Virus record (IMG/VR): IMGVR_UViG_2974795854_000001
Span: 8,980 to 72,979 of that record
Length of the DNA stretch: 64,000 nucleotides
DNA from: a virus
Lineage: Duplodnaviria; Caudoviricetes
Direction: 5' to 3' (one strand)
Below are positions 3,858 through 46,214 of the stretch, one piece after another. Below the pieces are notes generated by a model that was not told where the DNA came from, searched no databases, and was given only the letters and a program-made list of their open reading frames with translations. A program made the position numbers and the translations under genes. The stretch's first letter is position 1; each line of letters opens with the position of its first letter.

Positions 3858-5072
3858 TTACTTTTTTCGTTTGAAACGTAATTTAGAGCCTTGTCTACCT
3901 CCTGTTATGTTGTTTACAACACTTTCTATATTACCTTTCTTTGTTGTCGGCTTTACCGGAGTAGGGGTTCCATCTATTGTGATGTTAGCTCCTACTTTAA
4001 TTTGTCCTTCTTTTCCTGATTCAACTCCTTGATTATAAGCAGCTTGTATCATAGCGTCGAAATTTGTTACTTTTGCAACATCTTTAACTACATTAGCGTG
4101 ATTGTAAGAACCATCTTCATTATACCAATGGGGCATCTCTGCGACCATTTTAGGTAAATTTCTTTTAGTCTCCTCGGGGATGTTGTATTTTAACGTCATT
4201 CCCTCTTTCAAATTCAGCTCTATAGCTTCAAGAGATTGAGATTGTTTTGAAATGTTCAAGTTATAATCCTCAGTAGCTTTTGCACTAGCCGCTTGGGTAT
4301 CCTTAAACTGATTAGCAAAATTGATAGCCTCTTGTTGCTCTTTTGTCAGACTAGCTTGTTTATTACCCTTAGGTAAATTAACTTTACTAGACTCTAACTT
4401 TTCTCGTCCTTCTTTGGCGAACTTCTTAAGATTTATGTTTTTACGCATTTTATCTCCGTCGTCGTCATAGTTCTCATCGTAAATATAGTCTTTTAATGAA
4501 TACTCTATTTCTTCGTCTGTGAAGTTTGGAAACTCTTGGGATAGAATCTCTCTAGCCACGTCCAAGTCCTTCATACTTGAAAAATCTTTATTGTATTCAG
4601 ACCACTCTGATAAGTTTAAACCTGTGTCTTCTTTCCACTTTAAAAGTGCTTCTACCTCCGGATCAACTTCCTTCTGTTTAAGATCGTCTACACTACTAAT
4701 ACTTCTACCTAGCCTCTCGCTCAATAATGATAATAGTGTTTCTTCTGTAACTTCTGGTGTAACCTCAGGAGTTTCTACTGGTTTAGGAACTTCTGGTTTT
4801 ACTTCCACCGGCGGAACTGGGTCTGCAATTCCCGTTTCTACTGGTGGTATATTATTTGTAGGCTCTACTACTGTAGGCTCTACTATTTTTTCTACTGGTG
4901 GTGTAGGCTCTACTACTGTAGGCTCTACTGTTGGTGTAGGCTCTACCGTTGGTGCAGGCTCTACTGTTGGCTCTACTGGTGGTGTTGGTTCACCAGAAGG
5001 AGCTTTAGAAATACCTGATATAATAGATGCTGCTCTACTTAGGTTATCTCCTTGTTTTTTGAAAAATGCCAT
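3858..5072 (-). CDS. capsid scaffolding protein
   Basis: 404 aa, acidic, with a Pro/Glu/Thr/Val-rich low-complexity N-terminus, between portal and MCP. TATCTTTG promoter element at 5104-5111. Confidence 0.7.
   Translation of the reverse strand: MAFFKKQGDNLSRAASIISGISKAPSGEPTPPVEPTVEPAPTVEPTPTVEPTVVEPTPPVEKIVEPTVVEPTNNIPPVETGIADPVPPVEVKPEVPKPVETPEVTPEVTEETLLSLLSERLGRSISSVDDLKQKEVDPEVEALLKWKEDTGLNLSEWSEYNKDFSSMKDLDVAREILSQEFPNFTDEEIEYSLKDYIYDENYDDDGDKMRKNINLKKFAKEGREKLESSKVNLPKGNKQASLTKEQQEAINFANQFKDTQAASAKATEDYNLNISKQSQSLEAIELNLKEGMTLKYNIPEETKRNLPKMVAEMPHWYNEDGSYNHANVVKDVAKVTNFDAMIQAAYNQGVESGKEGQIKVGANITIDGTPTPVKPTTKKGNIESVVNNITGGRQGSKLRFKRKK
4855..4985 (-). repeat. intragenic tandem repeats encoding VEPT(P/V) units
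   Basis: Repeated gtaggctctact motif on the plus strand. Confidence 0.85.
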
Positions 5073-7625: not shown

Positions 7626-10265
7626 CTATTTTATAAGTGTACTGGTGTGACCCGTGTTTCTATATTTTCTTATCAAAGATACGTTTTTTTCCTTATCATT
7701 CTTTTTCTCGATAGGGTTGTATCTCTCTCGTTGACATCCCATTATGGCTAATCCACTAGAGATGGTTGCATCATGGGCAGTTCTAGCACTTGGATTGAAT
7801 ATCATCCAGTCTGAAATAGTGTCGTTAAAGACCATGTTACCCATGTCTCCCTCCGGTCTGTATTTTATACCTTCTGGCGCTGTACTAACTCCTACGTGAC
7901 ATTGTATAAAAGTTCTAATACAGTTTTCGTGAGTATCTAAAATATCCTTACTCTGCATTGGCTGTCCTCCTAATACTAAATCATCTCCGTCTAGTTTCTT
8001 CTTATCTACTCTATTCATTGAGAATGGTCTAGATCTGTTAGAGTAAATGTATCTAACAAAATCTCTCCTGTTGTTCTCTGCTAATATAGGTAGTCCGTAG
8101 AACCATGCCGCCATAAATATATCTTCGTTAAATATGTCCTGTGTTGCAGGCCTATCTAAGTATTCAAAGAAGAAGAAGTTTGTCGGAACTCCATGTGCGT
8201 TAGGTTTAGAGTACCCGTGGGCAGCTCCTTTAGACGCTTTATTTTTACCTTGTACGTATGAACCAAAACAATCGACTCCTATACAACCGTAGTCGTTCAT
8301 TGGAGTGTATAAGTTTCTTACAGACTTTACATTATTTCTAAGGTGGTCTGTGTTATCTCCTTTGTTCGGCATCCAAGCTATCTTGAACCTACCTCTATCA
8401 TCCGGTATAAACTCTACCTTAGAGAATCTTACGTCATTTTCCCATTTGAAATTACCTCTAACGTATTGACTCTTAACAATAGACACCTCTTCGTTGTTAT
8501 CCCATTGGTCAGTAAGTTTAGTAAGGTTGAATACACACTCATCTGCCTCATCCCTCATAGCGTGAGATTCGGTCATAGGGAATGCTCTGTATGCTGCGTT
8601 AAGAGCTACATCATCTGTATTCTTTGCATCATTGTACATCTCTTTAATAGCCTGTATAGAACCTTTAAGTATTGGCTCTCCGAACACGTTAAGGGTTCCT
8701 TTTGGAGGAGTTTCTTCCCAACACTTACCATATTTATCAATACAGTTTTCGTAGTTGGTGTGCGCTCCCATAAAGTAAGAGTACAATTTAGTTGAGGTAA
8801 ACCCTGACTCTTGCCTCTCTGAGACCTTAGAGTTTCTATAAAGTATTTTAAAATCTTCACCACCGGCATTTAATTTACCCATAGTAGACCCTAAGAATAC
8901 TTTACCCACTACTCTACCACCACGGAAGGTTGTAGGTAATAGTGTACCTAAGTGTTCTATGTAACTTGCTCTATCCCATTTAGCTGATTCATCCCCAATA
9001 TACAACTTCATGTGTCTACCATCATAGGCCTTAACCTTGGTAGCCTCGAAGTCGGTCATACTGTTCACATAACCATCTGTAGTTGTATCTTTTTTCTTTT
9101 TCTCGTCCTTACTAGAGTTTGATGGCTTACCAAAAGCTAAGTTAGTAGGAGAATCGACTTTACCTTTATAAATAGGTTGGAAGAAGAACGGCCATTCTTG
9201 AAACGTATAAGACATCTTACCAAAGGCTACTCTGGCATCATCATCCGTCATCGAAGTCAATCCTGTTCTGGCTCCTATAACCCTAGTTACTAATTCTAAA
9301 GAATCTGACATCATCCCATAAGTATACCCCGTTTGACGAGACTTAAGGAATATTTGACCCATAGACCTAGAATCTACGTAGCAGGCCTCTTTATGGTAGT
9401 AAAGTAAAAGTTGAGCATGTCTATAAGTAGGGTATATCTGGTCATCAAACATCTTTCCCCATTGTAATTGCATCCAATGTCTAGGAGACAACCAAGTAGG
9501 TTTTCCGTTGTTGTAGAACCAAAGACCTTCTCTTCTTATCCTAAACTGCTCTAATATGTATTCTGTAAAAGGCTCGGCATTGTCAGGGGTAAGGCCTTTA
9601 GGCAACTCTTCCCTTCTCCAATACTGATCTTCTTTCTTTTTATCGTGAAATCTTATTTTCTTTCTGTCTCTAGGTGGTAGTGGTAGTTGAACCCGTAGTC
9701 CATCTAACTCTATAATCTCACCTCTAGAACCTTTTGGGTCAATAACTACTGCGTCGTCCTCTTCATTATACCACTTTTTATAGTAGTTTTCTAGAGGGAA
9801 AAACTCTCCGTATGCAAACTTTTCTGCAAACCCTCTGGTAAATTCTGCCTCTTTTAAGATTACTTTACCTGTTTCAAACTGGTGCCTAAGTTCTATTAAT
9901 GAAGAATCTAACTCGGTTATAGAGTTAAGTATCAGTAACTTAGTCTGGGCAGCTAGCTTATGCTTGTGGGCATCTAACAAGTCGTAATCGATCTTTGCTA
10001 CTAATGCCTTCCTTAAAGTCTTAAGTGAGGACTCTCCTGAATTTATTAACTTCTCTACGTAGTTTGTAAACTTTTTATCCGATGGAGAATTTGGACTATT
10101 TACCCATTTAGAAAGTAACTCCTTAGCTGTTTTGAATGATGTTAATTTTGACTCCATGGCAGCCTTAACCTTATCAGGCTCTATGGCATCTACTACCATC
10201 TGATAATCTAGACCCTCTATAACTATGTCTAGTGCTAATTCTATGTCATGGCTTAATCCTATCAT
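7626..10265 (-). CDS. terL: terminase large subunit with N-terminal extension
   Basis: Walker A region LKSRQTGYT, Walker B YIGDESAK, coupling motif STMG, RNase H-like nuclease motif IGVDC. Confidence 0.92.
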   Translation of the reverse strand: MIGLSHDIELALDIVIEGLDYQMVVDAIEPDKVKAAMESKLTSFKTAKELLSKWVNSPNSPSDKKFTNYVEKLINSGESSLKTLRKALVAKIDYDLLDAHKHKLAAQTKLLILNSITELDSSLIELRHQFETGKVILKEAEFTRGFAEKFAYGEFFPLENYYKKWYNEEDDAVVIDPKGSRGEIIELDGLRVQLPLPPRDRKKIRFHDKKKEDQYWRREELPKGLTPDNAEPFTEYILEQFRIRREGLWFYNNGKPTWLSPRHWMQLQWGKMFDDQIYPTYRHAQLLLYYHKEACYVDSRSMGQIFLKSRQTGYTYGMMSDSLELVTRVIGARTGLTSMTDDDARVAFGKMSYTFQEWPFFFQPIYKGKVDSPTNLAFGKPSNSSKDEKKKKDTTTDGYVNSMTDFEATKVKAYDGRHMKLYIGDESAKWDRASYIEHLGTLLPTTFRGGRVVGKVFLGSTMGKLNAGGEDFKILYRNSKVSERQESGFTSTKLYSYFMGAHTNYENCIDKYGKCWEETPPKGTLNVFGEPILKGSIQAIKEMYNDAKNTDDVALNAAYRAFPMTESHAMRDEADECVFNLTKLTDQWDNNEEVSIVKSQYVRGNFKWENDVRFSKVEFIPDDRGRFKIAWMPNKGDNTDHLRNNVKSVRNLYTPMNDYGCIGVDCFGSYVQGKNKASKGAAHGYSKPNAHGVPTNFFFFEYLDRPATQDIFNEDIFMAAWFYGLPILAENNRRDFVRYIYSNRSRPFSMNRVDKKKLDGDDLVLGGQPMQSKDILDTHENCIRTFIQCHVGVSTAPEGIKYRPEGDMGNMVFNDTISDWMIFNPSARTAHDATISSGLAIMGCQRERYNPIEKKNDKEKNVSLIRKYRNTGHTSTLIK

Positions 10266-19951: not shown

Positions 19952-20665
19952 TTAATTTTCATATAATTTGATTAAGTTGCTTACTTGTATTGGGTAAAAT
20001 TTATTTCCTCTAGATGTTTCAAATCCGTTTTTATTAAGGTAATCTGCTATTTGCTTTAAAGTACTCTTGTTAGACTTCATTCTAGATGCCATAGCGTACG
20101 CTCTACGGTTGTTCTCGTTAGCAATGGCCTTTGCCTTTCTAATTACTTTAGAGCGCTCTCTGGCCATATCAGAGAGATTCTGAGGGTTGCCTAAAGAAGT
20201 GATTCGATCACCGGCTTTAGTAATATGGTACCCGTCAGATTCTATATTGGCCTTTATCTGACCTAAGGCGTCTTTTACCCTTCTCTGAGTTTTATCTTTT
20301 TCTTCCTTAGCAATTAAGAACTTGATGTTTTTAGAAAACTCGCTATCGTGAGGTGAATCGGCTTCTATAAAAGGTACACCCTTCTCCTCTAGCTTTGCTA
20401 TGGTCATAAACCCTGCTCTAGATAATCTATCTATGCGGTGAACCAATAATACCGCAGAGTGTTTCTTACAAAGCTCTAATGCCTTATCAAATCCTTCTCG
20501 AACTTGGGCCCCACCCGAGATTATCTCGCTAACCTCTTCTACTATAGTTCCGCCGTAAGACTTAACAAACGCCTCTACAGAACTCTTTTGAACTTCTAAC
20601 CCTATTCCATCTCTTTGGCTTTCTGTCGACGCCCTGTAGTATGCTACGTATTTCTTATTATCCAT
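19952..20665 (-). CDS. serine recombinase (resolvase/invertase family)
   Basis: Catalytic YYRASTESQ and RIDRLSR motifs, with a C-terminal HTH (TLKQIADYLN.NGFETSRG). ATG at 20665 is preferred over the track start at 20707. Confidence 0.9.
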   Translation of the reverse strand: MDNKKYVAYYRASTESQRDGIGLEVQKSSVEAFVKSYGGTIVEEVSEIISGGAQVREGFDKALELCKKHSAVLLVHRIDRLSRAGFMTIAKLEEKGVPFIEADSPHDSEFSKNIKFLIAKEEKDKTQRRVKDALGQIKANIESDGYHITKAGDRITSLGNPQNLSDMARERSKVIRKAKAIANENNRRAYAMASRMKSNKSTLKQIADYLNKNGFETSRGNKFYPIQVSNLIKLYEN

Positions 20666-20693
20666 CTCTATTAATTTTTGATTGTTGTTTTGA

Positions 20694-20924
20694 TTACTTA
20701 GTGGCACTCTCTACAGAAACTACTTGTGAGTAGTATCTAGTTACTTTTATTTCTTTTCCTTGTCTATCAGGATATCCTATGGTGGCCATCTTATTACCTA
20801 GTTTTAATATAGTACCTTCTTTAAGGAGGCTGTACCTCGGTACAACAAATACTACTCTATCTCCAACCTCTAATTCTACACTTATAAAATCTTTCATAAT
20901 ACAAATTGTTTTCGTTTTGCTCAT
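20694..20924 (-). CDS. hypothetical protein (SH3/KOW-like)
   Basis: 76 aa with a TATCTTTG element at 20927-20934, almost abutting the ATG. Confidence 0.6.
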   Translation of the reverse strand: MSKTKTICIMKDFISVELEVGDRVVFVVPRYSLLKEGTILKLGNKMATIGYPDRQGKEIKVTRYYSQVVSVESATK

Positions 20925-21675
20925 TACAAAGATAGTACATAAAGTCTGTTAAACCTAATTTATTTTCAATTATTTTTAATTTATTTTATAAGTCATTGAT
21001 TATTAACGTTTTACATAATTAAGTTATTTGGAGGGGTAAAAAAGTATAAAATATTTATTTGTATATTTGCATACACGCTTTATTTTTATTATATTTACAA
21101 CATATTACATACGAAGAGTTTCTAAGGGTTTGACTTACTCAAACTAAGTACCGAAGATAAAGAACCTAGCGAATAGGGAAGTAGTTAGTCGGGCTACATA
21201 TCGTTCTGGCCAAGGATAGGCGTGCTAAGATAGTTATTCGAGCGAAGGAACACTGAGGAGTGTTTGGAGTAAGAGAGGCAATTCCTCCGCCATTTATGGC
21301 TCCCATTATAACAGGAGGTTTATACTAAAGAGCGAAAGCTTTTAAACCAAATTAAGTTATATGTTTTCGTCTAAATTGTATCACTCTAACGGGTTTTACT
21401 CTTTAGCGAAGCTATATCCAGAGAGGATTACCTAAAGTATATTATAAGAGAATAAATATAGATATAATAGAATATAGATAACCTAGCCCCGAGATAAGAT
21501 ATGAGATATAAAGACTATAAAATAGAAAGTAAGAAGAAGAGTAAGTTGGATTCTAAAAAAGAAGATTCGACTGCTCGAGTTTATAAACGAAAAAATAGCA
21601 AGGTGAAGGATGCCCTATCTTTTAAAATTAGGGGCAAATCCAAATTAGCCTAGCACCAACCACCAGTTGAAAACA

Positions 21676-21708
21676 AGAAAGCCACCTTTAATTAGATGGC
21701 TTTTTTCA
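21676..21708. terminator. bidirectional intrinsic terminator at the end of tRNA operon C
   Basis: aagaaagcca-cctttaattaga-tggctttttt: hairpin with A-tract and U-tract on opposite sides. Confidence 0.8.
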
Positions 21709-21714
21709 TTTAAG

Positions 21715-21786
21715 AACTTCTAGAGGGATTCGAACCCCCAATCTACCCGTTCGTAGCGGAGCGCTTTTCCGTTAAGCTATAGAAGT
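21715..21786 (-). tRNA. trnR: tRNA-Arg(ACG), operon C
   Basis: Acceptor ACTTCTA/TAGAAGT, anticodon loop CT-ACG-AA, TTCGAAT T-loop. Confidence 0.92.
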
Positions 21787-21793
21787 GTGAAAG

Positions 21794-21876
21794 TGCATCC
21801 AGAGGGATTCGAACCCCCAATCCTTTCGGCGACAGGTTTTAAGCCTGTAGTGTATAGCCATTTCCACCATGAATGC
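21794..21876 (-). tRNA. trnL: tRNA-Leu(TAA), operon C
   Basis: ACAGG-CT-TAA-AA-CCTGT, long variable arm, A73. Confidence 0.92.
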
Positions 21877-21885
21877 ATTAGTAAG

Positions 21886-21968
21886 TACCGGAAGAGGGAT
21901 TCGAACCCTCAAAAGTCTAGGTTTCTAAAACCCAATGATCTACCATTCTCTTTTTTACTCACTCCGGT
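21886..21968 (-). tRNA. trnL: tRNA-Leu(TAG), atypical, operon C
   Basis: TGGGT-TT-TAG-AA-ACCTA, good acceptor stem and T-arm, expanded D region and only a 7-nt variable region. Confidence 0.8.
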
Positions 21969-22003
21969 ATAAAAGGGGCGTGACATTATGACACCCCCTG
22001 TGT

Positions 22004-22080
22004 TGGACAACCGTATGGGAATCGAACCCATGTAATCAGGTTCACAGCTTGACCGCCTTTCCAATTTGGCGCAACGGAGG
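22004..22080 (-). tRNA. trnH: tRNA-His(GTG) with mismatched acceptor stem and encoded CCA, operon C
   Basis: Loop CT-GTG-AA, D stem CGCC/GGCG, T-arm ATGGG/CCCAT, acceptor mismatches C2.U71 and U3.U70. Confidence 0.8.
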
Positions 22081-22091
22081 ACTCTTATAAG

Positions 22092-22163
22092 ATGGAGTAC
22101 AGGGGCTCGAACCCCGACGAACTGGCTCAAAACCAATCATGCTAACCATTACATCATACTCCA
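22092..22163 (-). tRNA. trnQ: tRNA-Gln(TTG), operon C
   Basis: TGGAGTA/TACTCCA acceptor, ATTGG-TT-TTG-AG-CCAGT. Confidence 0.92.
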
Positions 22164-22209
22164 ATGTCTAGTTTCTACTTTTTTGGGAGATACTAGTAAA
22201 CAACCTTCG

Positions 22210-22284
22210 TACTATCGACGAGACTCGAACTCGCATTGCGCACCTTGAAAGGGTGGGTTCCTACTCCATTTAGAAGACGATAGC
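22210..22284 (-). tRNA. trnE: tRNA-Glu(TTC), operon C
   Basis: GCTATCG/CGATAGT acceptor, loop CT-TTC-AA. Confidence 0.92.
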
Positions 22285-22293
22285 AAATCAAAG

Positions 22294-22365
22294 TCGAGTA
22301 GGCAGGGATCGAACCTGCATTCTCCGACGTCCAAGGTCGGCACGTGCCAATTTTGTCACTACTCG
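22294..22365 (-). tRNA. trnP: tRNA-Pro(TGG), first gene of operon C
   Basis: C1-G72, A73, CCGAC-CT-TGG-AC-GTCGG. Confidence 0.92.
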
Positions 22366-22367
22366 AA

Positions 22368-22406
22368 ATAAAAAAAGCCCCAATGGTTTGTACCAAAGGG
22401 GCTCTT
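22368..22406 (-). terminator. attenuator terminator of tRNA operon C
   Basis: AGCCCC-tt-TGGT-acaa-ACCA-tt-GGGGCT followed by a U-tract ending a few nt before tRNA-Pro. Confidence 0.85.
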
Positions 22407-22429
22407 AATAGGATATTGTGCGTTGAAAA

Positions 22430-22519
22430 CTATGATAGTTCATCAATCCCATGATAAGACACCCTCGATGGTAATCGAAGTTGTTCTAAGGGCTCTTGAT
22501 GTAATAGTCTTGCGTTCAT
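22430..22519 (-). CDS. leader peptide of tRNA operon C (MNARLLHQEPLEQLRLPSRVSYHGIDELS)
   Basis: Manual translation. Codons 5-17 are only Leu/His/Gln/Glu/Pro/Arg, the amino acids of the downstream tRNAs. Confidence 0.85.
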   Translation of the reverse strand: MNARLLHQEPLEQLRLPSRVSYHGIDELS

Positions 22520-22520
22520 A

Positions 22521-22559
22521 TTGTAAATATACAACTTTTTTTTGATATAAAAAAACTTA
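22521..22559 (-). promoter_or_regulatory. promoter repeat copy C (TATATTTA -7 element)
   Basis: Near-identical to 23761-23800 and 25359-25394, and matches the Bacteroidota TAnnTTTG-type -7 box. Confidence 0.8.
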
Positions 22560-22571
22560 TACTATTTTATT

Positions 22572-22865
22572 TTATGTTCTTGTTGGATTCTTCTTAACTC
22601 TCTTCTTTGCAGCAGCTAATTTCTTAGTATATGCACTCATACCTCCGGCCTTCTCTACGTCCTTCTTAAAGGCTGCAGATCTATTGGCGTCGTTACGACC
22701 TCTAGTTCCTCTAGCTTCTTCTTCTTTCTTAAGCTTGCCACTTGTCTTAACAGTGTACTTTTTAGCTTTAGTGTTTGCAACACCACTCTTATCAGATTTG
22801 ATCGTTACGTTTTTCTTAGGTGCAGTTTTCTTAGTTGGCACCGTCTTTCTTGTAGTTCTTCTCAT
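22572..22865 (-). CDS. small highly basic protein between tRNA operons B and C
   Basis: MRRTTRKTVPTKKTAPKK..., Lys/Arg-rich. ATG at 22865 is preferred over the track start at 22913, which overlaps promoter-like elements. Confidence 0.7.
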   Translation of the reverse strand: MRRTTRKTVPTKKTAPKKNVTIKSDKSGVANTKAKKYTVKTSGKLKKEEEARGTRGRNDANRSAAFKKDVEKAGGMSAYTKKLAAAKKRVKKNPTRT

Positions 22866-22916
22866 TGTTGTTTGTTTAACGTTAAGTAGTAAAGATACGA
22901 AAAATACAAACATAAG

Positions 22917-22988
22917 AATCGGAGACCGGAATTGAACCGGTATAGCACAGTTTTGCAGACAGGCCCCTTCTCCGTCAGGTTCTCCGAT
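22917..22988 (-). tRNA. trnC: tRNA-Cys(GCA), last gene of operon B
   Basis: ATCGGAG/CTCCGAT acceptor, U73, loop CT-GCA-AA. Confidence 0.85.
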
Positions 22989-22993
22989 ATAAG

Positions 22994-23066
22994 TGCGATA
23001 GGTAGGTTTCGATCCTACTCCTCTGGGGTTTCAAGCCAGTGCTTCTACCAAGTTAGCTTCTACCGC
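22994..23066 (-). tRNA. trnF: tRNA-Phe(GAA), operon B
   Basis: GCGGTAG/CTATCGC acceptor, loop TT-GAA-AC. Confidence 0.87.
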
Positions 23067-23146
23067 ATTAAAAAACAACAGCCAAGACCTTCTCTCGGAT
23101 TTTATGGCGGCTCCTTTACATTATAGGATGCTCTGTTGTTTTATCG

Positions 23147-23215
23147 CGCGCACCCAAAGAATCGAACTCTGTCCTACGGGGTTGGAATCCGTTTGGCCAC
23201 CATGGCCTGATGCGC
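23147..23215 (-). tRNA. trnW: tRNA-Trp(CCA) with short D-arm, operon B
   Basis: GCGCATC/GGTGCGC acceptor, G73, loop TT-CCA-AC. Confidence 0.87.
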
Positions 23216-23222
23216 ATTAAAG

Positions 23223-23294
23223 AGGCTAGGGAGAATTACGATATCTCGACCTGACGCTTAACAGGCGCCTGCTCTTCCTCTGAGCTACCTAGCC
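23223..23294 (-). tRNA. trnN: tRNA-Asn(GTT), operon B
   Basis: GGCTAGG/CCTAGCC acceptor, GGCGC-CT-GTT-AA-GCGTC, variant T-loop ATCGTAA. Confidence 0.9.
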
Positions 23295-23303
23295 GTGTGT
23301 TTG

Positions 23304-23388
23304 TAGAGAAGAAGGGATTCGAACCCTCGGAGGCGTTAACCCCACTACTTTAGCAAAGTAGCACCTTAAGCCACTCAGACACCTCTCT
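23304..23388 (-). tRNA. trnS: tRNA-Ser(GCT), operon B
   Basis: CTACT-TT-GCT-AA-AGTAG, long variable arm. Confidence 0.92.
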
Positions 23389-23393
23389 AAATG

Positions 23394-23483
23394 TGGAAGA
23401 AGTGGGGCTCGAACCCACACGGGCTTTTAAACCCCAACTGTTTTCAAGACAGCGACCCGTAGACCTACTTGGCTTACCCTTCC
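23394..23483 (-). tRNA. trnS: tRNA-Ser(TGA), operon B
   Basis: GCTGT-CT-TGA-AA-ACAGT, long variable arm. Confidence 0.92.
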
Positions 23484-23490
23484 ATTATTG

Positions 23491-23572
23491 TTGCACCGTG
23501 CGGAATCGAACCACTCCCCTCTCAAGAACTGTTTTACAGACAGCCTGCTAGAACCACTAGCTTTACGTTGCA
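23491..23572 (-). tRNA. trnY: tRNA-Tyr(GTA), first gene of operon B
   Basis: GCTGT-CT-GTA-AA-ACAGT, long variable arm, A73. Confidence 0.88.
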
Positions 23573-23577
23573 AGTTA

Positions 23578-23620
23578 TAAAAAACAAAAAACCCTCTTAG
23601 CTACGAAAGACCAAGAGGGT
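23578..23620 (-). terminator. attenuator terminator of tRNA operon B
   Basis: ACCCTCTT...AAGAGGGT 8-bp stem (extendable) followed by TTTTTGTTTTT, just before tRNA-Tyr. Confidence 0.85.
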
Positions 23621-23669
23621 AAAAATCAAAATTAATAATCAAAAATTAATAAAAGAAATGAATATATTT

Positions 23670-23759
23670 TTAAGACAAGTACAACCTCTCGACATTATAG
23701 CTACTAAAGCTACAATTCGAATACCAAGAGAAATTATTGTATGTCATGTTTGTTTTCAT
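23670..23759 (-). CDS. leader peptide of tRNA operon B (MKTNMTYNNFSWYSNCSFSSYNVERLYLS)
   Basis: Manual translation. Codons 7-22 are 16 consecutive Tyr/Asn/Phe/Ser/Trp/Cys codons, exactly the operon's tRNA set. Confidence 0.88.
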   Translation of the reverse strand: MKTNMTYNNFSWYSNCSFSSYNVERLYLS

Positions 23760-23760
23760 A

Positions 23761-23800
23761 TTGTAAATATACAACTTTTTTTTGATATAAAAAAACTTAC
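23761..23800 (-). promoter_or_regulatory. promoter repeat copy B (TATATTTA -7 element)
   Basis: 39-nt identity with copy C (ttgtaaatatacaactttttttgatataaaaaaactta-type block on the plus strand). Confidence 0.8.
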
Positions 23801-23821
23801 ATCATTTTATTTTAAAAATAG

Positions 23822-23891
23822 TTGGAATAGAGGGAATCGAACCCATCTCCACACGCATATAAGACGTGCTAACCTACCTAGGCTTACTCCA
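23822..23891 (-). tRNA. trnI: tRNA-Ile(TAT), rare UAU anticodon, reduced D-arm, last gene of operon A
   Basis: TGGAGTA/TATTCCA acceptor (nearly the same as tRNA-Ile GAT), A73, CACGT-CT-TAT-AT-GCGTG, T-stem with two mismatches. Confidence 0.8.
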
Positions 23892-24013
23892 ATAAAGATC
23901 TTGTGGTCACTATATCCACATCACACGCTGTTTTAAGGTTTATCTCTGTTACCAAAGAATGCAGGCATACGTGTTACCTAAAAGCCTATAAGTGTTTTTC
24001 ACTAAGATCCAAG

Positions 24014-24084
24014 AACCTCTACAGGGATTCGAACCCCGATCATAGCGGTAGAAGCGCCGTATTTTTCCATTAAACTATAGAGGC
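24014..24084 (-). tRNA. trnR: tRNA-Arg(TCT), operon A
   Basis: GCCTCTA/TAGAGGT acceptor, loop CT-TCT-AC. Confidence 0.9.
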
Positions 24085-24145
24085 AAAAAAGACCTACCCT
24101 TGGACACTTTGAGACGTTCTCCTAGAAGTGTGGTAGGTACTGTTG

Positions 24146-24219
24146 TACCAAATGACAGATTCGAACTATCGACCTTCTCCTTGTAAAAGAGCTGCTCTAA
24201 ACCACTGAGCTAATCTGGT
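24146..24219 (-). tRNA. trnV: tRNA-Val(TAC), operon A
   Basis: ACCAGAT/ATTTGGT acceptor, loop TT-TAC-AA. Confidence 0.9.
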
Positions 24220-24429
24220 ATATGGTAGGCATGTTACTACACCTACTTTTTTGTTTTTAACGTGGAGAAGCTTATTTCCATAACTCAAAACTCCATTACA
24301 ATACTTTTAACCTAATAAATAAAAAGGGGCTCTTGTTCACGATATCTAGTATTCGCTAAGCCCCCTTTTCAAAAAAACACTTAATCTAATGCGCTTCAAA
24401 ACTTCTCGAGAGGCGGATTAAGTCTGTTG

Positions 24430-24503
24430 AGCACTAATCAGGGATCGAACCCGAATTATCTTCGTTACAAATGAAGTACCATTTCCTATTCAGTCATTAG
24501 TGC
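24430..24503 (-). tRNA. trnT: tRNA-Thr(TGT), operon A
   Basis: GCACTAA/TTAGTGC acceptor, loop TT-TGT-AA. Confidence 0.88.
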
Positions 24504-24513
24504 ATAATTAAAG

Positions 24514-24590
24514 CGGTCTAAGAGGGATTCGAACCCTCGTTTTAGAGCAGTGACAGTGCAATTCGTGTTACCAAACACGCTTATTAGACC
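24514..24590 (-). tRNA. trnD: tRNA-Asp(GTC), operon A
   Basis: GGTCTAA/TTAGACC acceptor, G73, loop CT-GTC-AC, weak anticodon stem. Confidence 0.85.
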
Positions 24591-24665
24591 AGTTGGCAGA
24601 TGTCGATTAACTGCCGAGTGTCGTACGAACACCCTTTATCCCGAAGAGTGTAGAAACGACTTTTG

Positions 24666-24734
24666 TGGCGGGTATGGGAGTCGAACCCATCTATAAGGAC
24701 TTATGAGGCCCTCCGGTCACCACGACCACCCACA
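24666..24734 (-). tRNA. trnM: tRNA-Met(CAT) with short D-arm and unpaired 1:72, operon A
   Basis: AGGGC-CT-CAT-AA-GTCCT, U1.C72 mismatch, 69 nt. Met versus lysidine-Ile identity cannot be fixed by eye. Confidence 0.78.
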
Positions 24735-24744
24735 ATTTTAAAAG

Positions 24745-24817
24745 AGCGTAAGACGAGGTTCGAACTCGCTATCTCCTACTTGGAAGGCAGGCGCCATTCC
24801 ACTATGGCCTCTTACGC
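24745..24817 (-). tRNA. trnG: tRNA-Gly(TCC), operon A
   Basis: GCGTAAG/CTTACGC acceptor, U73, loop CT-TCC-AA. Confidence 0.92.
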
Positions 24818-24905
24818 AAATTCCTCTTTTTATAGAGTTGAGGTAAAAACATTCTCTTAGTCCAACTTTTTTCCTTTTTCTTTCTTTCGGTAGTCTTCCG
24901 CCTCG

Positions 24906-24978
24906 TTGGAATAGAAGGTTTCGAACCTACGACCTCTCCCGTATCAGGGGAGTGCTCTAACCGCTGAGCTATACTCCA
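24906..24978 (-). tRNA. trnI: tRNA-Ile(GAT), operon A
   Basis: Canonical cloverleaf, CTCCC-CT-GAT-AC-GGGAG. Confidence 0.94.
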
Positions 24979-25027
24979 ATATTACCTTATTCGCTTATAA
25001 TCCATTATATAAGCTAATTTACTTATG

Positions 25028-25100
25028 TGCCCCTGCTAGGAATCGAACCTAGCCCCACTGTTTAAAAGACAGTTGCCTACAACCTGTTTGCTACAAGGGC
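25028..25100 (-). tRNA. trnK: tRNA-Lys(TTT), operon A
   Basis: ACTGT-CT-TTT-AA-ACAGT, GCCCTTG/CAGGGGC acceptor. Confidence 0.92.
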
Positions 25101-25128
25101 AATTTGGTGTCAGTAAGGGATCTTATTG

Positions 25129-25203
25129 TGGAACTCATGGGTATCGAACCCATCTCACTCTGATTGCAAATCAAAGTCGCCTTGCCTTGGTTCATGCAGC
25201 CCC
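25129..25203 (-). tRNA. trnA: tRNA-Ala(TGC), first gene of operon A
   Basis: G3:U70 and A73 Ala identity elements, loop TT-TGC-AA. Confidence 0.87.
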
Positions 25204-25233
25204 AATAAAAAACCCTCCTTTTTAGGGGAGGGC
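25204..25233 (-). terminator. attenuator terminator of tRNA operon A
   Basis: GCCCTCC-cctaaaaa-GGAGGGT followed by a U-tract, abutting tRNA-Ala. Confidence 0.82.
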
Positions 25234-25261
25234 TGTAATAAATATCTTATATCTAAAGAAA

Positions 25262-25339
25262 TTATAGTACACGGCTCCTCCCCAAGAGTTTCACTCCCTT
25301 GGTTCTAATATCTGTCGCTATGTTCATAATTGTTTTCAT
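25262..25339 (-). CDS. leader peptide of tRNA operon A (MKTIMNIATDIRTKGVKLLGRSRVL)
   Basis: Manual translation. 16 of the first 17 codons are Met/Lys/Thr/Ile/Ala/Asp/Arg(AGA)/Gly/Val, the operon's tRNA set. Confidence 0.85.
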   Translation of the reverse strand: MKTIMNIATDIRTKGVKLLGRSRVL

Positions 25340-25358
25340 CGATCTTATTGCTTTGATA

Positions 25359-25394
25359 CAAATATACAACTTTTTTTGATATAAAAAAACTTAC
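25359..25394 (-). promoter_or_regulatory. promoter repeat copy A (TATATTTG -7 element)
   Basis: Same block as copies B and C, with a perfect Bacteroidota TAnnTTTG at 25359-25366. Confidence 0.82.
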
Positions 25395-25411
25395 TTGTAA
25401 ATAATTCTGTT

Positions 25412-25558
25412 TTAGATGTCTTTTCCGGTTTTTTCTTCAATCTTTCGCTCCAACTCGTCTGCAGCACTATTGAAATATGCCTGTAATTTAGGGTTGTTCT
25501 TCAAGATTAATGCGAAACCTGCCGCTCCGGCCAATACTCCTACTAAAAATGTAATCAT
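25412..25558 (-). CDS. small membrane protein (48 aa, MITFLVGVLAGAAGFALILK...)
   Basis: Manual translation. N-terminal TM helix plus charged tail, below the track's length cutoff. Confidence 0.6.
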   Translation of the reverse strand: MITFLVGVLAGAAGFALILKNNPKLQAYFNSAADELERKIEEKTGKDI

Positions 25559-25611
25559 AGTTTATAATGTTTATAATGTTAGATGCAAATATAGTAAAAG
25601 TATGCGAACTA

Positions 25612-25743
25612 TTATTCAATCCTTTCTTTATATTGTTCGACGGCCTGTCCTGTTTTCTTATTTATGTACTCTCTTAAGTACTTCCTTTGATCTTCTGATA
25701 GCTCAGACCAAAATTCCCCGAATGATCTCCATGTACGTGCCAT
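25612..25743 (-). CDS. small hypothetical protein (43 aa, MARTWRSFGEFWSEL...)
   Basis: Manual translation, phage-like codon usage, same strand as its neighbours. Confidence 0.5.
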   Translation of the reverse strand: MARTWRSFGEFWSELSEDQRKYLREYINKKTGQAVEQYKERIE

Positions 25744-25763
25744 ATTTTATAAAATTATCGTTA

Positions 25764-26057
25764 TTAATACACCTCTATTGAGTTTGTATAAGTTATTTCA
25801 AAGTCTTCTGGGGCGTTTAATGCAAATAACAGGCCATTTGCAAAAGCTTCTGCTGCTACATCACCTTTCTCGTGGTAGTAGTCACCGTAAGAAGATGCTA
25901 AGACGTCGTTTACATAAACTCGAGCTCCTACATAGTCTCCTCCGAGGATACTTTCTCTCACTTCTTCATCTCCTAAATCTTGGCCCTCATAATCGTAGAA
26001 CACTGTATCTATTCTAATAGTTTTTAATTCGATCACTCCTAGTAATTTATCTGACAT
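25764..26057 (-). CDS. hypothetical protein
   Basis: 97 aa acidic ORF, first gene of the leftward arm. Confidence 0.6.
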   Translation of the reverse strand: MSDKLLGVIELKTIRIDTVFYDYEGQDLGDEEVRESILGGDYVGARVYVNDVLASSYGDYYHEKGDVAAEAFANGLLFALNAPEDFEITYTNSIEVY

Positions 26058-29981: not shown

Positions 29982-30053
29982 GCTCTTTTCGTCTAGCGGT
30001 AAGGACATTCGGTTTTCATCCGAAAAACATAGGTTCGAATCCTATAGAGAGTA
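29982..30053 (+). tRNA. trnE: tRNA-Glu(TTC), early-region copy 1
   Basis: TTCGG-TT-TTC-AT-CCGAA, canonical cloverleaf. Confidence 0.92.
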
Positions 30054-30073
30054 CTAATATTAAAATTTAAGAG

Positions 30074-32434: not shown

Positions 32435-32506
32435 GCTCTTTTCGTCTAGCGGTAAGGACATTCGGTTTTCATCCGAAAAACATAGGTTCGAATCCTATAG
32501 AGAGTA
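32435..32506 (+). tRNA. trnE: tRNA-Glu(TTC), early-region copy 2
   Basis: Sequence identical to 29982..30053. Confidence 0.92.
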
Positions 32507-32526
32507 CTAATTAATACAAACTAGTC

Positions 32527-33970: not shown

Positions 33971-34329
33971 GGGGGCGACTGGTTTTGACAGGGTATAACA
34001 GTCGTTAATGTTCAGCGCAGAGAGATAACTGCACAAACTAAGGTGAAATTCTTTAAACGGAAACAACACGAATGCGGTAAACGCACAGATCGAAGCTAAT
34101 ATGGAAGCGGTAAACGCTATCCTTAACCTTGAAGTAGCAGTAGGGGTATAAGCTGACCGTTTTATCTGTTTTCTCAAAACAGTTTGGTGGAGCTTCAATC
34201 ATAACTATGGTTGGCCCCTCTAGCATAAAGAGTCTAAAGAAATGCCGTGTGTAACGATACTACACAAAAGCTGTATAAAACATTGACGATTAAGTGCTCT
34301 GGACGAGGGTTCGATTCCCTCCGCCTCCA
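33971..34329 (+). ncRNA. ssrA: tmRNA
   Basis: 5' GGGGGCG-ACTGGTTTTGACAG, 3' GAGGG-TTCGATT-CCCTC-CGCCTCC-A, G3:U70. Putative tag ORF at 34059-34151. Confidence 0.93.
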
Positions 34330-34352
34330 CTAATAATCATAAAACAATAAAG

Positions 34353-40483: not shown

Positions 40484-41887
40484 ATGGTAACAGGAAACAC
40501 TCTGATTAAATTAGGGTACAAGCCAAGTAAATGGTTTGGAGAAGCTATTGACGAGCTTAATGCCCAAGAGAAACAATTTCTAAAAATATTAGGCAGAAAG
40601 TTAACGGATGACGAAATAATATTTTCGTGTAATAAGTACTTACCTCCCCCAACTATAGGACTACATAAAGATCCTGTGAGTTACACTATCAACATTTTAC
40701 CAACCAACGAAAAGGAGCGAAACAATGTAGATTTAGTAAAGATGTCCATGGACAGCTTGATGAAGACTCCTACAATTGTAGACGGAACTATAATGCCGGA
40801 TGCATGCCCCACGGGGAAGTTAGGGCAGATACCAGTAGGTTCTGTAGTAGTAACTAAGAACGCAATCCACCCCGGTTTTCATTCAGCAGATATTTGCTGC
40901 TCTGTGTACGCCACGGAGTTTGCCGAAGGAGTTAAACCAAAGGATGTCATGGATATTGCATTTGAGACGACTCAATTTGGCCCCGGAGGTAGGAGAGGAT
41001 TAGGAGGTTGGTCATCTATATTAGATGGAGAGTCTCTACTTACAAGTAGAATAGAAGAAAACTACTTCACTAAAGATTACATAGAGAAGGCTAGGATGCA
41101 CATGGGAACACAAGGAGATGGTAACCATTTCTTATTCGTAGGAGTGTCAGAAGCTACCGGAAGAACGATGATGGTAACGCACCATGGGTCTAGAGGATTC
41201 GGTTCTAGTGTCTATAAAAAAGGGATGCATACTGCAGAGAGATTTAGAAAGCAATTAAGCCCTAAAACAGCCCCGATGAATGCTTGGATACCTTTTGAAG
41301 AAAAGGAGGGAGAATTGTACTGGGAGGCCTTGCAGATACTAAGAGACTGGACTAAATTAAACCACTCTTCTATACACAATAGGGTAGCAAACAAATTGAA
41401 GACTACTCCAATAAGATCTTTTTGGAATGAGCACAATTTTGTATTCAAGGACGGAGATAAGTTCTACCATGCCAAAGGCGCAACTCCTTTAGATGACAAG
41501 TTTGTACCGGATTCTACGGAGGGCCTAAGGCTAATACCTTTAAACATGGCAGAGCCTATACTAGTAGTAAAAGGAAAAACTACAAGAACTAACTTAGGAT
41601 TTGCTCCACACGGTGCAGGTAGAAATGTAAGTAGGGCAGCACATAAGAGAAGTTTATCAGCCAAGAGCAACCCTCAGATATTCAAAGACGAGACTGCAGG
41701 CCTAGACATAAGATTCTTCTCAGGAGAGATAGATATCTCTGAGTTGCCATCCGCTTATAAGAACGCAGATACAGTACAAGACCAAATGGAGAGTTTTGGA
41801 CTAGGAGACGTATTAGATAAGATAATGCCTTACGGAAGTATAATGGCAGGTGATTACGACAGATTTAAACCTTGGAAAAAGAAATAA
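40484..41887 (+). CDS. rtcB: RtcB-family RNA ligase
   Basis: MPDACP, SADICCS, GTQGDGNHF, THHGSRG, HAKGATP and PHGAGR motifs. Confidence 0.92.
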   Translation: MVTGNTLIKLGYKPSKWFGEAIDELNAQEKQFLKILGRKLTDDEIIFSCNKYLPPPTIGLHKDPVSYTINILPTNEKERNNVDLVKMSMDSLMKTPTIVDGTIMPDACPTGKLGQIPVGSVVVTKNAIHPGFHSADICCSVYATEFAEGVKPKDVMDIAFETTQFGPGGRRGLGGWSSILDGESLLTSRIEENYFTKDYIEKARMHMGTQGDGNHFLFVGVSEATGRTMMVTHHGSRGFGSSVYKKGMHTAERFRKQLSPKTAPMNAWIPFEEKEGELYWEALQILRDWTKLNHSSIHNRVANKLKTTPIRSFWNEHNFVFKDGDKFYHAKGATPLDDKFVPDSTEGLRLIPLNMAEPILVVKGKTTRTNLGFAPHGAGRNVSRAAHKRSLSAKSNPQIFKDETAGLDIRFFSGEIDISELPSAYKNADTVQDQMESFGLGDVLDKIMPYGSIMAGDYDRFKPWKKK

Positions 41888-45482: not shown

Positions 45483-46214
45483 ATGAAAGTATTTGTAATG
45501 GGAGACATCCACGGATCTGCAAAGGGCTTAAAGCAATGTTTAGAAAGGTCTGGGTTTGATAAAGATGTAGATAAGCTAATACAGCTAGGAGATATTGCAG
45601 ACGGTTGGGATGATACTCCCGAGTGTGTAGATATACTACTGGGCATAAAGAATTTAGTGGCTATCAGAGGTAATCACGATGTGTGGTGCCACGATTGGAT
45701 TAAGTACGGAAGTGCTTCAAGTAGTTGGCTTAGACACGGGGGAGAGTCTACAGTATACTCTTACGTAGATAAAGAATTAATACAAGACGAAAGGCACTTA
45801 AAGTTTTGGGAAGACCAAGTAGATTGGTATATAGACGATGAAAACAGACTCTTTGTACATGCAGGTTGGGATTATTCTCACCATGGAGATTTTGAAAGGC
45901 AGGCAAGCTTGAAAGTTAACGAAGGCTCTATAGCCAAAGAATGCCATTGGAATAGAGATTTGTACAGATCTGCGCTATCTCTTAGAAATAGAAAGGAGTT
46001 AGATAGCTTCAAGCCACTTAAGCAATTCAAGGAGATATACATTGGCCACACTTCACATAACAAAAGAAAACCTTTTTGGGTAGGTAATCTATGTAACATG
46101 GACACCGGAGCAGGCCGGAGAGGTCATCTTTGTATAATGGACATGGACACCAAAGAGTTTTGGTTATCAGATAGAAGTAAAGACCTATATCCGAACTCCA
46201 AAGGAAGGGGATAA
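45483..46214 (+). CDS. calcineurin-like metallophosphoesterase (lambda NinI-like)
   Basis: GDIHG, GDIAD, GNHD, HAG, GHT and DTG motifs. Confidence 0.9.
   Translation: MKVFVMGDIHGSAKGLKQCLERSGFDKDVDKLIQLGDIADGWDDTPECVDILLGIKNLVAIRGNHDVWCHDWIKYGSASSSWLRHGGESTVYSYVDKELIQDERHLKFWEDQVDWYIDDENRLFVHAGWDYSHHGDFERQASLKVNEGSIAKECHWNRDLYRSALSLRNRKELDSFKPLKQFKEIYIGHTSHNKRKPFWVGNLCNMDTGAGRRGHLCIMDMDTKEFWLSDRSKDLYPNSKGRG

Follow-up and report, generated by a model that had tools for sequence, protein, structure and literature searches.

Among the leader-peptide attenuators of enterobacteria, the ilvGMEDA leader (Ile, Leu, Val) and thrL (Thr, Ile) are multivalent examples, standing alongside trpL, hisL, pheL and leuL, and aminoacyl-tRNA synthetases are controlled, for one amino acid each, by the pheST (pheM) attenuator of E. 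coli and by the T-box riboswitches of Firmicutes. Why phages carry tRNA genes is a long-standing question; it has been proposed that these genes compensate for codon usage, replace host tRNAs that have been degraded, or allow evasion of anticodon nucleases. Here we analyze a 64-kb stretch of DNA from a marine phage, hereafter the window (positions 8,980 to 72,979 of IMG/VR record IMGVR_UViG_2974795854_000001), in which three blocks of tRNA genes are each preceded by a candidate leader-peptide attenuator, a short predicted open reading frame (ORF) with a run of codons that the tRNAs behind it read.

The pheL leader is described in PMC3082878, and leaderless polycysteine short ORFs of mycobacteria are cysteine-responsive attenuators (bioRxiv 10.1101/834739). 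In full-text literature searches, no account of tRNA genes under leader-peptide control turned up for phages or bacteria, and the papers on phages phi38:1 and Panino make no mention of it, in agreement with an earlier note on this DNA, made by a model from the letters alone, that knew of no such case.

The window makes up most of a 72,979-base virus record rated complete, a 73-kb genome of podovirus type. All coordinates given are window positions, and the relatives labeled L004 to L044 are viral contigs from IMG/VR. Over 97% of its length, the stretch 21500-25700 matches the Cellulophaga phages phi38:1 and phi40:1 (Pervagoviridae, Callevirus) at 96% identity, and Maribacter phage Panino is a more distant match to the same stretch; all three are cultured relatives.

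Each tRNA block is headed by a leader that spells out its own tRNAs

The tRNA genes lie on the minus strand, as do all elements of the cassettes that head them, and ahead of each of the three blocks the architecture proposed in the earlier note was found: in order, a near-identical repeat of 36-37 nucleotides (nt), an ORF of 25-29 codons, a hairpin followed by a T-run, and then the tRNAs. Block A (23821..25209) comprises Ala-TGC, Lys-TTT, Ile-GAT, Gly-TCC, Met-CAT, Asp-GTC, Thr-TGT, Val-TAC, Arg-TCT and Ile-TAT (ARAGORN and Rfam, with Ala called by alignment). Block B (22916..23572; ARAGORN and Rfam) comprises Tyr-GTA, Ser-TGA, Ser-GCT, Asn-GTT, Trp-CCA, Phe-GAA and Cys-GCA, and block C (21714..22365) comprises Pro-TGG, Glu-TTC, Gln-TTG, His-GTG, Leu-TAG, Leu-TAA and Arg-ACG (ARAGORN and Rfam, with Leu-TAG called by alignment). 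The leader ORFs are 25 codons plus stop for unit A (25262..25339) and 29 codons plus stop for units B (23670..23759) and C (22430..22519). The genes downstream of these leaders are tRNAs only, with none of the amino-acid biosynthesis or transport genes that form the classical scope of attenuators.

Within each leader, a contiguous run of codons corresponds to the tRNAs that follow. Block A tRNAs read 15 of the 16 codons in run A (codons 2-17, 25289..25336), block B tRNAs read all 16 codons of run B (codons 7-22, 23694..23741), and block C tRNAs read all 13 codons of run C (codons 5-17, 22469..22507). All 24 tRNAs were said to have a cognate or wobble codon in their own leader, and the runs cover 10/10, 7/7 and 7/7 boxes, respectively. 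When approximately 128,000 six-frame codon windows across the 64 kb were scanned exhaustively, only the three leaders reached the observed combination of match and box coverage, and run B was the sole 16-codon window with 16 matches in any of the six frames. Each leader faces its own block and scores at background against the other two tRNA sets. Binomial p-values computed on a coding-frame background were dropped: for sets B and C, values of 1e-7 to 5e-10 were obtained even with small control ORFs in non-coding frames. Because the binomial was miscalibrated, we relied on the exhaustive scan of match and box coverage and on label permutations.

The match is at the level of the tRNA (isoacceptor), beyond that of the amino acid. 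In the window, run A spells Arg as AGA and run C as CGA, and where Arg-ACG is the only Arg tRNA downstream, 6 of the 7 Arg codons in runs are CGN, as against 11% CGN among the Arg codons of the window's genes. As a caveat, leader C also has AGA and AGG codons outside its run, and these belong to the Arg tRNA of block A.

The repeats resemble promoters. Repeat A (25359..25394) contains a Bacteroidota-type -7 box of the form TAnnTTTG, and repeats B (23764..23800) and C (22524..22560) contain a -7-like box; each predicted leader ORF opens close behind, its ATG lying 4 nt past the core in B and C and 19 nt past it in A. Within the window, the three repeats occur only ahead of the three leaders. 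The promoter-plus-ATG pattern also matches L005 and L006, two unrelated viral contigs without tRNAs, where it starts ordinary protein genes with the 4-nt spacing of B and C. These matches were used only as support for the promoter and the start-codon spacing, and they favor both readings. Given that the ATG follows the -7-like box by 4 nt, the B mRNA is probably leaderless, as is probably the C mRNA. A sigma-70 consensus scan missed all three repeats, which is expected of Bacteroidota-type promoters. Phage phi38:1 does not encode an RNA polymerase and relies on that of its host (PMC5335546), consistent with host-type promoters at the cassettes.

Between each ORF and the first tRNA lies a predicted intrinsic terminator. 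That of unit A is an 8-pair hairpin with a T-run ending just ahead of tRNA-Ala (25204..25233, -13.3 kcal/mol), that of unit B an 11-pair hairpin with a T-run (23579..23620, -16.6 kcal/mol), and that of unit C a hairpin with an internal loop and a T-run ending at tRNA-Pro (22366..22406, -20.6 kcal/mol), which a simple pattern scan missed. A further predicted terminator closes the array after Arg-ACG (21670..21706).

One tRNA for each of 24 codon boxes

ARAGORN at default settings called 18 minus-strand tRNAs in 21714-25100, and at a relaxed threshold it added Ile-TAT, Tyr, Phe and Cys, with Phe and Cys also found by Rfam. The Leu-TAG candidate at 21885-21968 and the Ala-TGC candidate at 25133-25209 have atypical D regions and were called solely by alignment to ARAGORN-called homologues in relatives, against which the anticodon stem-loops of both are conserved. 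The former aligns with Leu-TAG tRNAs at the same position in three relatives, its anticodon loop conserved; the latter aligns with the tRNA-Ala of Panino and carries a G3:U70 pair. A Gln-TTG reading of 21885-21968, returned by ARAGORN at the relaxed threshold, was rejected in favor of Leu-TAG, as alignment to the relatives supports no Gln. This anticodon check bears out the count of 24 minus-strand tRNAs reported previously, with 10 in block A, 7 in B and 7 in C. The 24 anticodons represent each of 24 codon boxes exactly once, and no further tRNA was found in the remainder of the 72,979-base genome outside the window.

On the plus strand, tRNA-Glu(TTC) occurs in two identical additional copies among protein genes (29982-30054 and 32435-32507), both lacking a leader cassette and both outside the attenuated blocks. 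In the 24-tRNA set, U34 occurs in every four-fold box except that of Arg-ACG. The blocks are also largely sorted by first codon letter, with B mostly U-starting, C mostly C-starting, and A both A- and G-starting, a pattern possibly linked to the classes of position-37 modification.

Leader composition follows the downstream tRNA set across phages

Leaders A and B are identical in phi38:1, and leader C departs from its phi38:1 counterpart at four codons alone (3, 4, 21 and 23), none of them in the run. Homologues of leader A occur in L007 and Panino, of leader B in L007, L017, L028, L044 and Panino, and of leader C in Panino, L004 and L007, and the in-frame start is kept in the relatives' leaders. 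At the level of whole units, L004 carries unit C, and L007 and L008 carry all three. Between the window and L007, every change in run A is either synonymous or a swap within the amino acids of block A, and one of them puts Asp in place of the odd Asn codon; the leader substitutions fit selection on decoding. In Panino, units C and A are adjacent and their leaders are homologous but diverged. At a distance of 40 kb, on the opposite strand, Panino carries block B (Tyr, Ser, Ser, Asn, Trp, Phe), equipped with a separate promoter core, a terminator and a leader in which the codons of precisely these tRNAs abound. Because this separate block retains its own cassette, cassette and block travel as one module.

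We extended the comparison with a 20-nt tRNA-Phe word, which retrieved 40 diverse viral contigs, and with an architecture-first pipeline that sought tRNAs with a hairpin and T-run immediately ahead of them and kept the best ORF in the vicinity. The design was found across many IMG/VR contigs, with no fewer than 14 distinct tRNA groupings, including leaders spelled to Pro-Cys-Phe-Thr-His-Gln, Pro-Gln-His-Arg, Leu-Leu-Ser-Ser, Leu-Leu-Phe-Cys-Tyr and Asp-Glu-Ile-Phe-Ile groupings and to a twelve-tRNA block. Across 33 non-redundant units identified by architecture alone, the score of leaders against their own tRNA sets was 140.2, compared with a permuted mean of 51.8 (sd 7.7, maximum 82.1), and none of 5000 label permutations reached the observed score. 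With one unit per leader family (14 units), the score was 70.0 versus 22.9 (sd 5.7) under permutation, and again none of 20,000 permutations reached it. Leader composition follows the downstream tRNA set across phages, so that the regulatory codons correspond to the regulated product both in the window and beyond it. The permutation test and the covariation in relatives that the earlier note had called for thus gave the predicted outcome, the latter extending to unrelated phage contigs with other groupings.

A variant arrangement was seen in L040 (reverse-complement 3863-4045), where a 60-codon ORF ends in a run of Asn/Asp codons and is followed by a terminator, tRNA-Asp and tRNA-Asn. Here the sensor run may be fused to the end of a longer ORF.

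A segment after the codon run can pair with the terminator

A segment just after the codon run had been described as complementary to the 5' arm of the terminator, and we find such a segment in all three units, G-rich and kept across phages despite sequence differences. In unit A (25273..25285) it lies inside the ORF, starting 6 nt after the run and ending 8 nt before the stop; its duplex with the 5' arm is predicted at -10.7 kcal/mol, versus -12.3 kcal/mol for the terminator arms (shuffle p = 0.04). The unit B segment (23684..23693) follows the run without a gap, with 11 nt remaining to the stop and a duplex of -11.1 kcal/mol (shuffle p = 0.005). The unit C segment (22455..22473) reaches back into the final codons of the run and leaves 22 nt to the stop, with a duplex of -14.9 versus -20.6 kcal/mol for the terminator arms (shuffle p = 0.045).

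The same relationship extends to 25 leader units, in which the terminator 5' arm has its strongest upstream partner 0-13 nt past the run; in 23 of them this partner falls inside the ORF, 1-40 nt before the stop. Own leader-terminator pairs averaged -12.3 kcal/mol and mismatched pairs -8.5 kcal/mol (Mann-Whitney p = 5.5e-9), and arm pairing beat shuffles at p <= 0.05 in 17 of the 25. The arm sequences differ between phages yet the pairing is kept, which amounts to covariation.

We then folded the nascent RNA of these 25 units up to the terminator loop with the ribosome-covered region masked. In the predicted folds, the 5' arm was paired upstream in all 25 units with a ribosome stalled mid-run and in a single unit with a ribosome at the stop; with no ribosome, it was paired upstream in 21. 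Together with the pairing statistics, the masked folds describe two mutually exclusive structures, one of which involves RNA that a ribosome would cover. In unit A, the 5' arm is predicted to pair upstream unless a ribosome sits at the stop. In the free RNA of unit B, the antiterminator segment is predicted to pair with the early run, in a 1:2-type arrangement like that of the trp leader.

The cassettes likely act as ribosome-mediated attenuators

As read from the sequence, each cassette is likely a ribosome-mediated (leader-peptide) transcription attenuator controlling the tRNA block behind it, a reading that builds on four observations: the anatomy, the statistical uniqueness of the leaders, the match of leader and tRNA set across phages, and the conserved alternative pairing. 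We infer where transcripts start, that the leaders are translated, that transcription ends at the hairpins, which way the switch turns and what sets it off in nature; since the anatomy is that of classical leader-peptide attenuation, the direction is taken from the classical case. Host RNA polymerase would start at the repeat and a ribosome would at once translate the short ORF, probably on a leaderless mRNA in B and C, with the run of 13-16 codons near the ORF start sampling every codon box of the downstream tRNAs. When decoding is fast, the ribosome would pass the G-rich segment and reach the stop, leaving the segment unpaired, so that the hairpin and U-tract would form and transcription would terminate before the first tRNA. 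When any sampled codon is decoded slowly through scarcity of its charged tRNA, the ribosome would stall in the run, the G-rich segment would pair with the emerging 5' arm, and the block would be transcribed in the absence of a terminator. The new tRNAs would then speed translation of the leader and shut the block off, giving block-by-block negative feedback; as the run is decoded by the block's own products, this feedback would act directly on decoding capacity. The attenuation reading put forward in the earlier note is supported, and each computational test that the note proposed turned out in its favor.

Several observations weigh against this reading. Within the window, run A contains one Asn codon, all three antiterminators are weaker than their terminators, and those of A and C only modestly beat shuffles (p = 0.04 and 0.045). 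A clear 1:2-type pairing is seen in unit B only, A and C lacking one, and units A and C are predicted to be antiterminated, and thus to read through, without any ribosome, so that their off state rests wholly on prompt translation. The unit C segment ends 22 nt before the stop, and a ribosome parked at the stop would consequently not cover it. Host tRNAs read the same codons, and the sensor would therefore report total decoding capacity, not the phage tRNAs specifically. Among the relatives, Panino leader A is without Val and Met codons. In the survey, terminator-preceded blocks in L010, L022, L024 and L032 have a weak matching leader or none, and L038 has, on the minus strand, a tight ten-tRNA array right after a protein gene, with neither leader nor terminator; the design is accordingly not universal among phage tRNA arrays.

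To these points we add the hairpin plus T-run spacers without a leader ORF that lie inside the blocks before Val (24320-24395), Arg-TCT (24086-24140), Phe (23068-23140) and Leu-TAG (21973-22000), which might cut off or lower the output of the distal tRNAs. They may be partial terminators or processing sites. Because of them, the earlier description of the array as three operons is slightly too simple. Three of the four spacers start alike after the preceding tRNA and resemble one repeated spacer element, and the hairpin before Leu-TAG is absent from Panino, L004 and L007.

The L038 contig also carries a tRNA with a CTA anticodon, of the amber-suppressor type. A leader with an in-frame stop codon ahead of this suppressor-type tRNA was considered and rejected, as the array has no leader.

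Alternative explanations of the leaders

Of the alternatives, the one that survives best, though we hold it improbable, is that the leaders are translated without any classical switch, with a coupled ribosome pushing polymerase through the stop or with translation protecting the precursor from Rho or nucleases. In the first version, good decoding would yield more tRNA, a reverse logic that is conceivable because translation-transcription coupling can suppress terminators, and units A and C, having no clear anti-antiterminator, do not obviously have the off state as their default. The spacing of the elements speaks against it: stop codons in the window lie 23-49 nt upstream of the terminator 5' arm and antiterminators end 13-64 nt upstream of it across units, and a terminating ribosome therefore cannot directly block the hairpin. 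Reverse logic or protection also gives no role to the conserved complementarity between the ORF segment and the 5' arm, and an inventory of the codons of the downstream tRNAs would be unnecessary for mere protection.

A very unlikely explanation is that the RNA is an untranslated switch, in which the triplets pair with tRNA anticodons in the manner of a multi-specifier T-box, or bind a protein, and the ORF is incidental. T-box leaders do sense tRNA by codon-anticodon pairing and also end in a terminator/antiterminator pair; yet 21000-26000 has no match to the T-box or to any Rfam leader family (His, Trp, Leu and Thr leaders and others) at E <= 0.1, and the whole window contains no Rfam leader or T-box match at gathering score. 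An ATG (rarely GTG) stands in frame with the run in all units and the stop codon follows the antiterminator, the distance from the ATG to the promoter core equals that of ordinary genes, changes in the runs are at third positions or within the set, and a series of 13-16 contiguous specifiers is without structural precedent.

That the ORFs are small functional peptides, or chance ORFs next to constitutive terminators or processing hairpins, can be set aside as exceedingly improbable: two of them are annotated as hypothetical proteins in phi38:1 (gp066 and gp070), but relatives carry the residues in shuffled order with a composition that keeps to the downstream tRNAs, and chance is excluded by the exhaustive scan and the permutations.

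Neighboring and translation-related genes

A short way downstream of the array, as also in phi38:1, lies a serine recombinase gene (19952-20707, minus strand; Pfam Resolvase, E = 4e-18), and a Pfam search of the neighboring ORFs returned nothing else beyond weak matches. Between block B and promoter C sits a gene (22572-22865, minus strand) for a Lys-rich basic protein, a homologue of a phi38:1 'structural protein', with its own promoter-like box; L007 has a similar gene at the matching position.

Immediately upstream of leader A lies a gene for a 48-residue membrane-type protein (25412-25558, minus strand; L002 5269-5418), which is kept in L007 and, at 56% identity, in Panino. No promoter repeat separates this gene from leader A in Panino, and the Panino leader may for that reason be read from a longer transcript. 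A search for relatives through this small membrane protein returned phi38:1 only.

The phage also encodes a transfer-messenger RNA (tmRNA; 33971-34332, plus strand; Rfam RF00023, 86.6 bits), whose ARAGORN-predicted tag is long and non-canonical, and the Panino tRNA array likewise contains an annotated tmRNA. An RtcB RNA ligase is encoded at 40484-41887 (plus strand; Pfam PF01139, E = 1.8e-33) and a calcineurin-like phosphoesterase at 45483-46214. RtcB and the phosphoesterase are possible tRNA-repair functions of the same genome.

Possible triggers and wider meaning

If the cassettes do work as attenuators, the main trigger could be the loss of host tRNAs during infection, through defense nucleases or host shut-off, and it could equally be plain supply-on-demand homeostasis, neither of which we would assert with confidence. 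Amino-acid starvation is an unlikely candidate for the selected signal. The RtcB ligase and tmRNA fit a setting of tRNA damage, a circumstantial point. More speculatively, the 24 tRNAs might form a complete spare decoding set in which the loss of a single tRNA, by an anticodon nuclease or host shut-off, switches on just its block, and which together with RtcB and tmRNA would make up a sense, replace, repair and rescue system against tRNA-targeting defenses. With cultured hosts for phi38:1, phi40:1 and Panino, this tentative idea is directly testable.

The three leaders together sample all 24 codon boxes, and the phage family and its hosts are in culture with infection time-course protocols in existence. 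A switch that measures each codon box would imply that tRNA shortage in infection is real, variable and worth sensing, and read-through per block would offer a read-out to tell the competing ideas of phage tRNA carriage apart. Leader-peptide attenuation would thereby reach stable RNA genes as a new class of target and take a new form, in which as many as ten codon boxes are inventoried and the product feeds back directly. The leaders would also reveal which tRNAs are co-regulated and which codons are meant for odd phage tRNAs, and could serve as compact codon-specific sensors for Bacteroidota.

Comparison with known systems

The phage cassettes share with the enterobacterial attenuators a short 5' ORF, a run of regulatory codons, a segment that pairs with the terminator 5' arm, and the ribosome's position as the presumed input. 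They differ in what is regulated, tRNA genes in place of biosynthetic enzymes, and in the breadth of the run, which samples 7-10 codon boxes, usually once or a few times each, whereas enterobacterial leaders repeat one to three amino acids. Unlike the enterobacterial systems, they are carried by a Bacteroidota phage, probably on a leaderless mRNA, their product would feed back directly on the sensor, and by sequence they belong to no Rfam leader family.

As with the pheM attenuator and the T-boxes, the charging or availability of the matching tRNA would govern the supply side of translation, by a choice between terminator and antiterminator. T-boxes, however, bind tRNA directly without translation, and the phage cassettes match no T-box model. 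The mycobacterial polycysteine ORFs are likewise short regulatory ORFs at or next to the transcript 5' end, with codon-specific stalling as the input; they answer to a single amino acid, control the protein genes downstream, belong to another phylum and gate no tRNAs.

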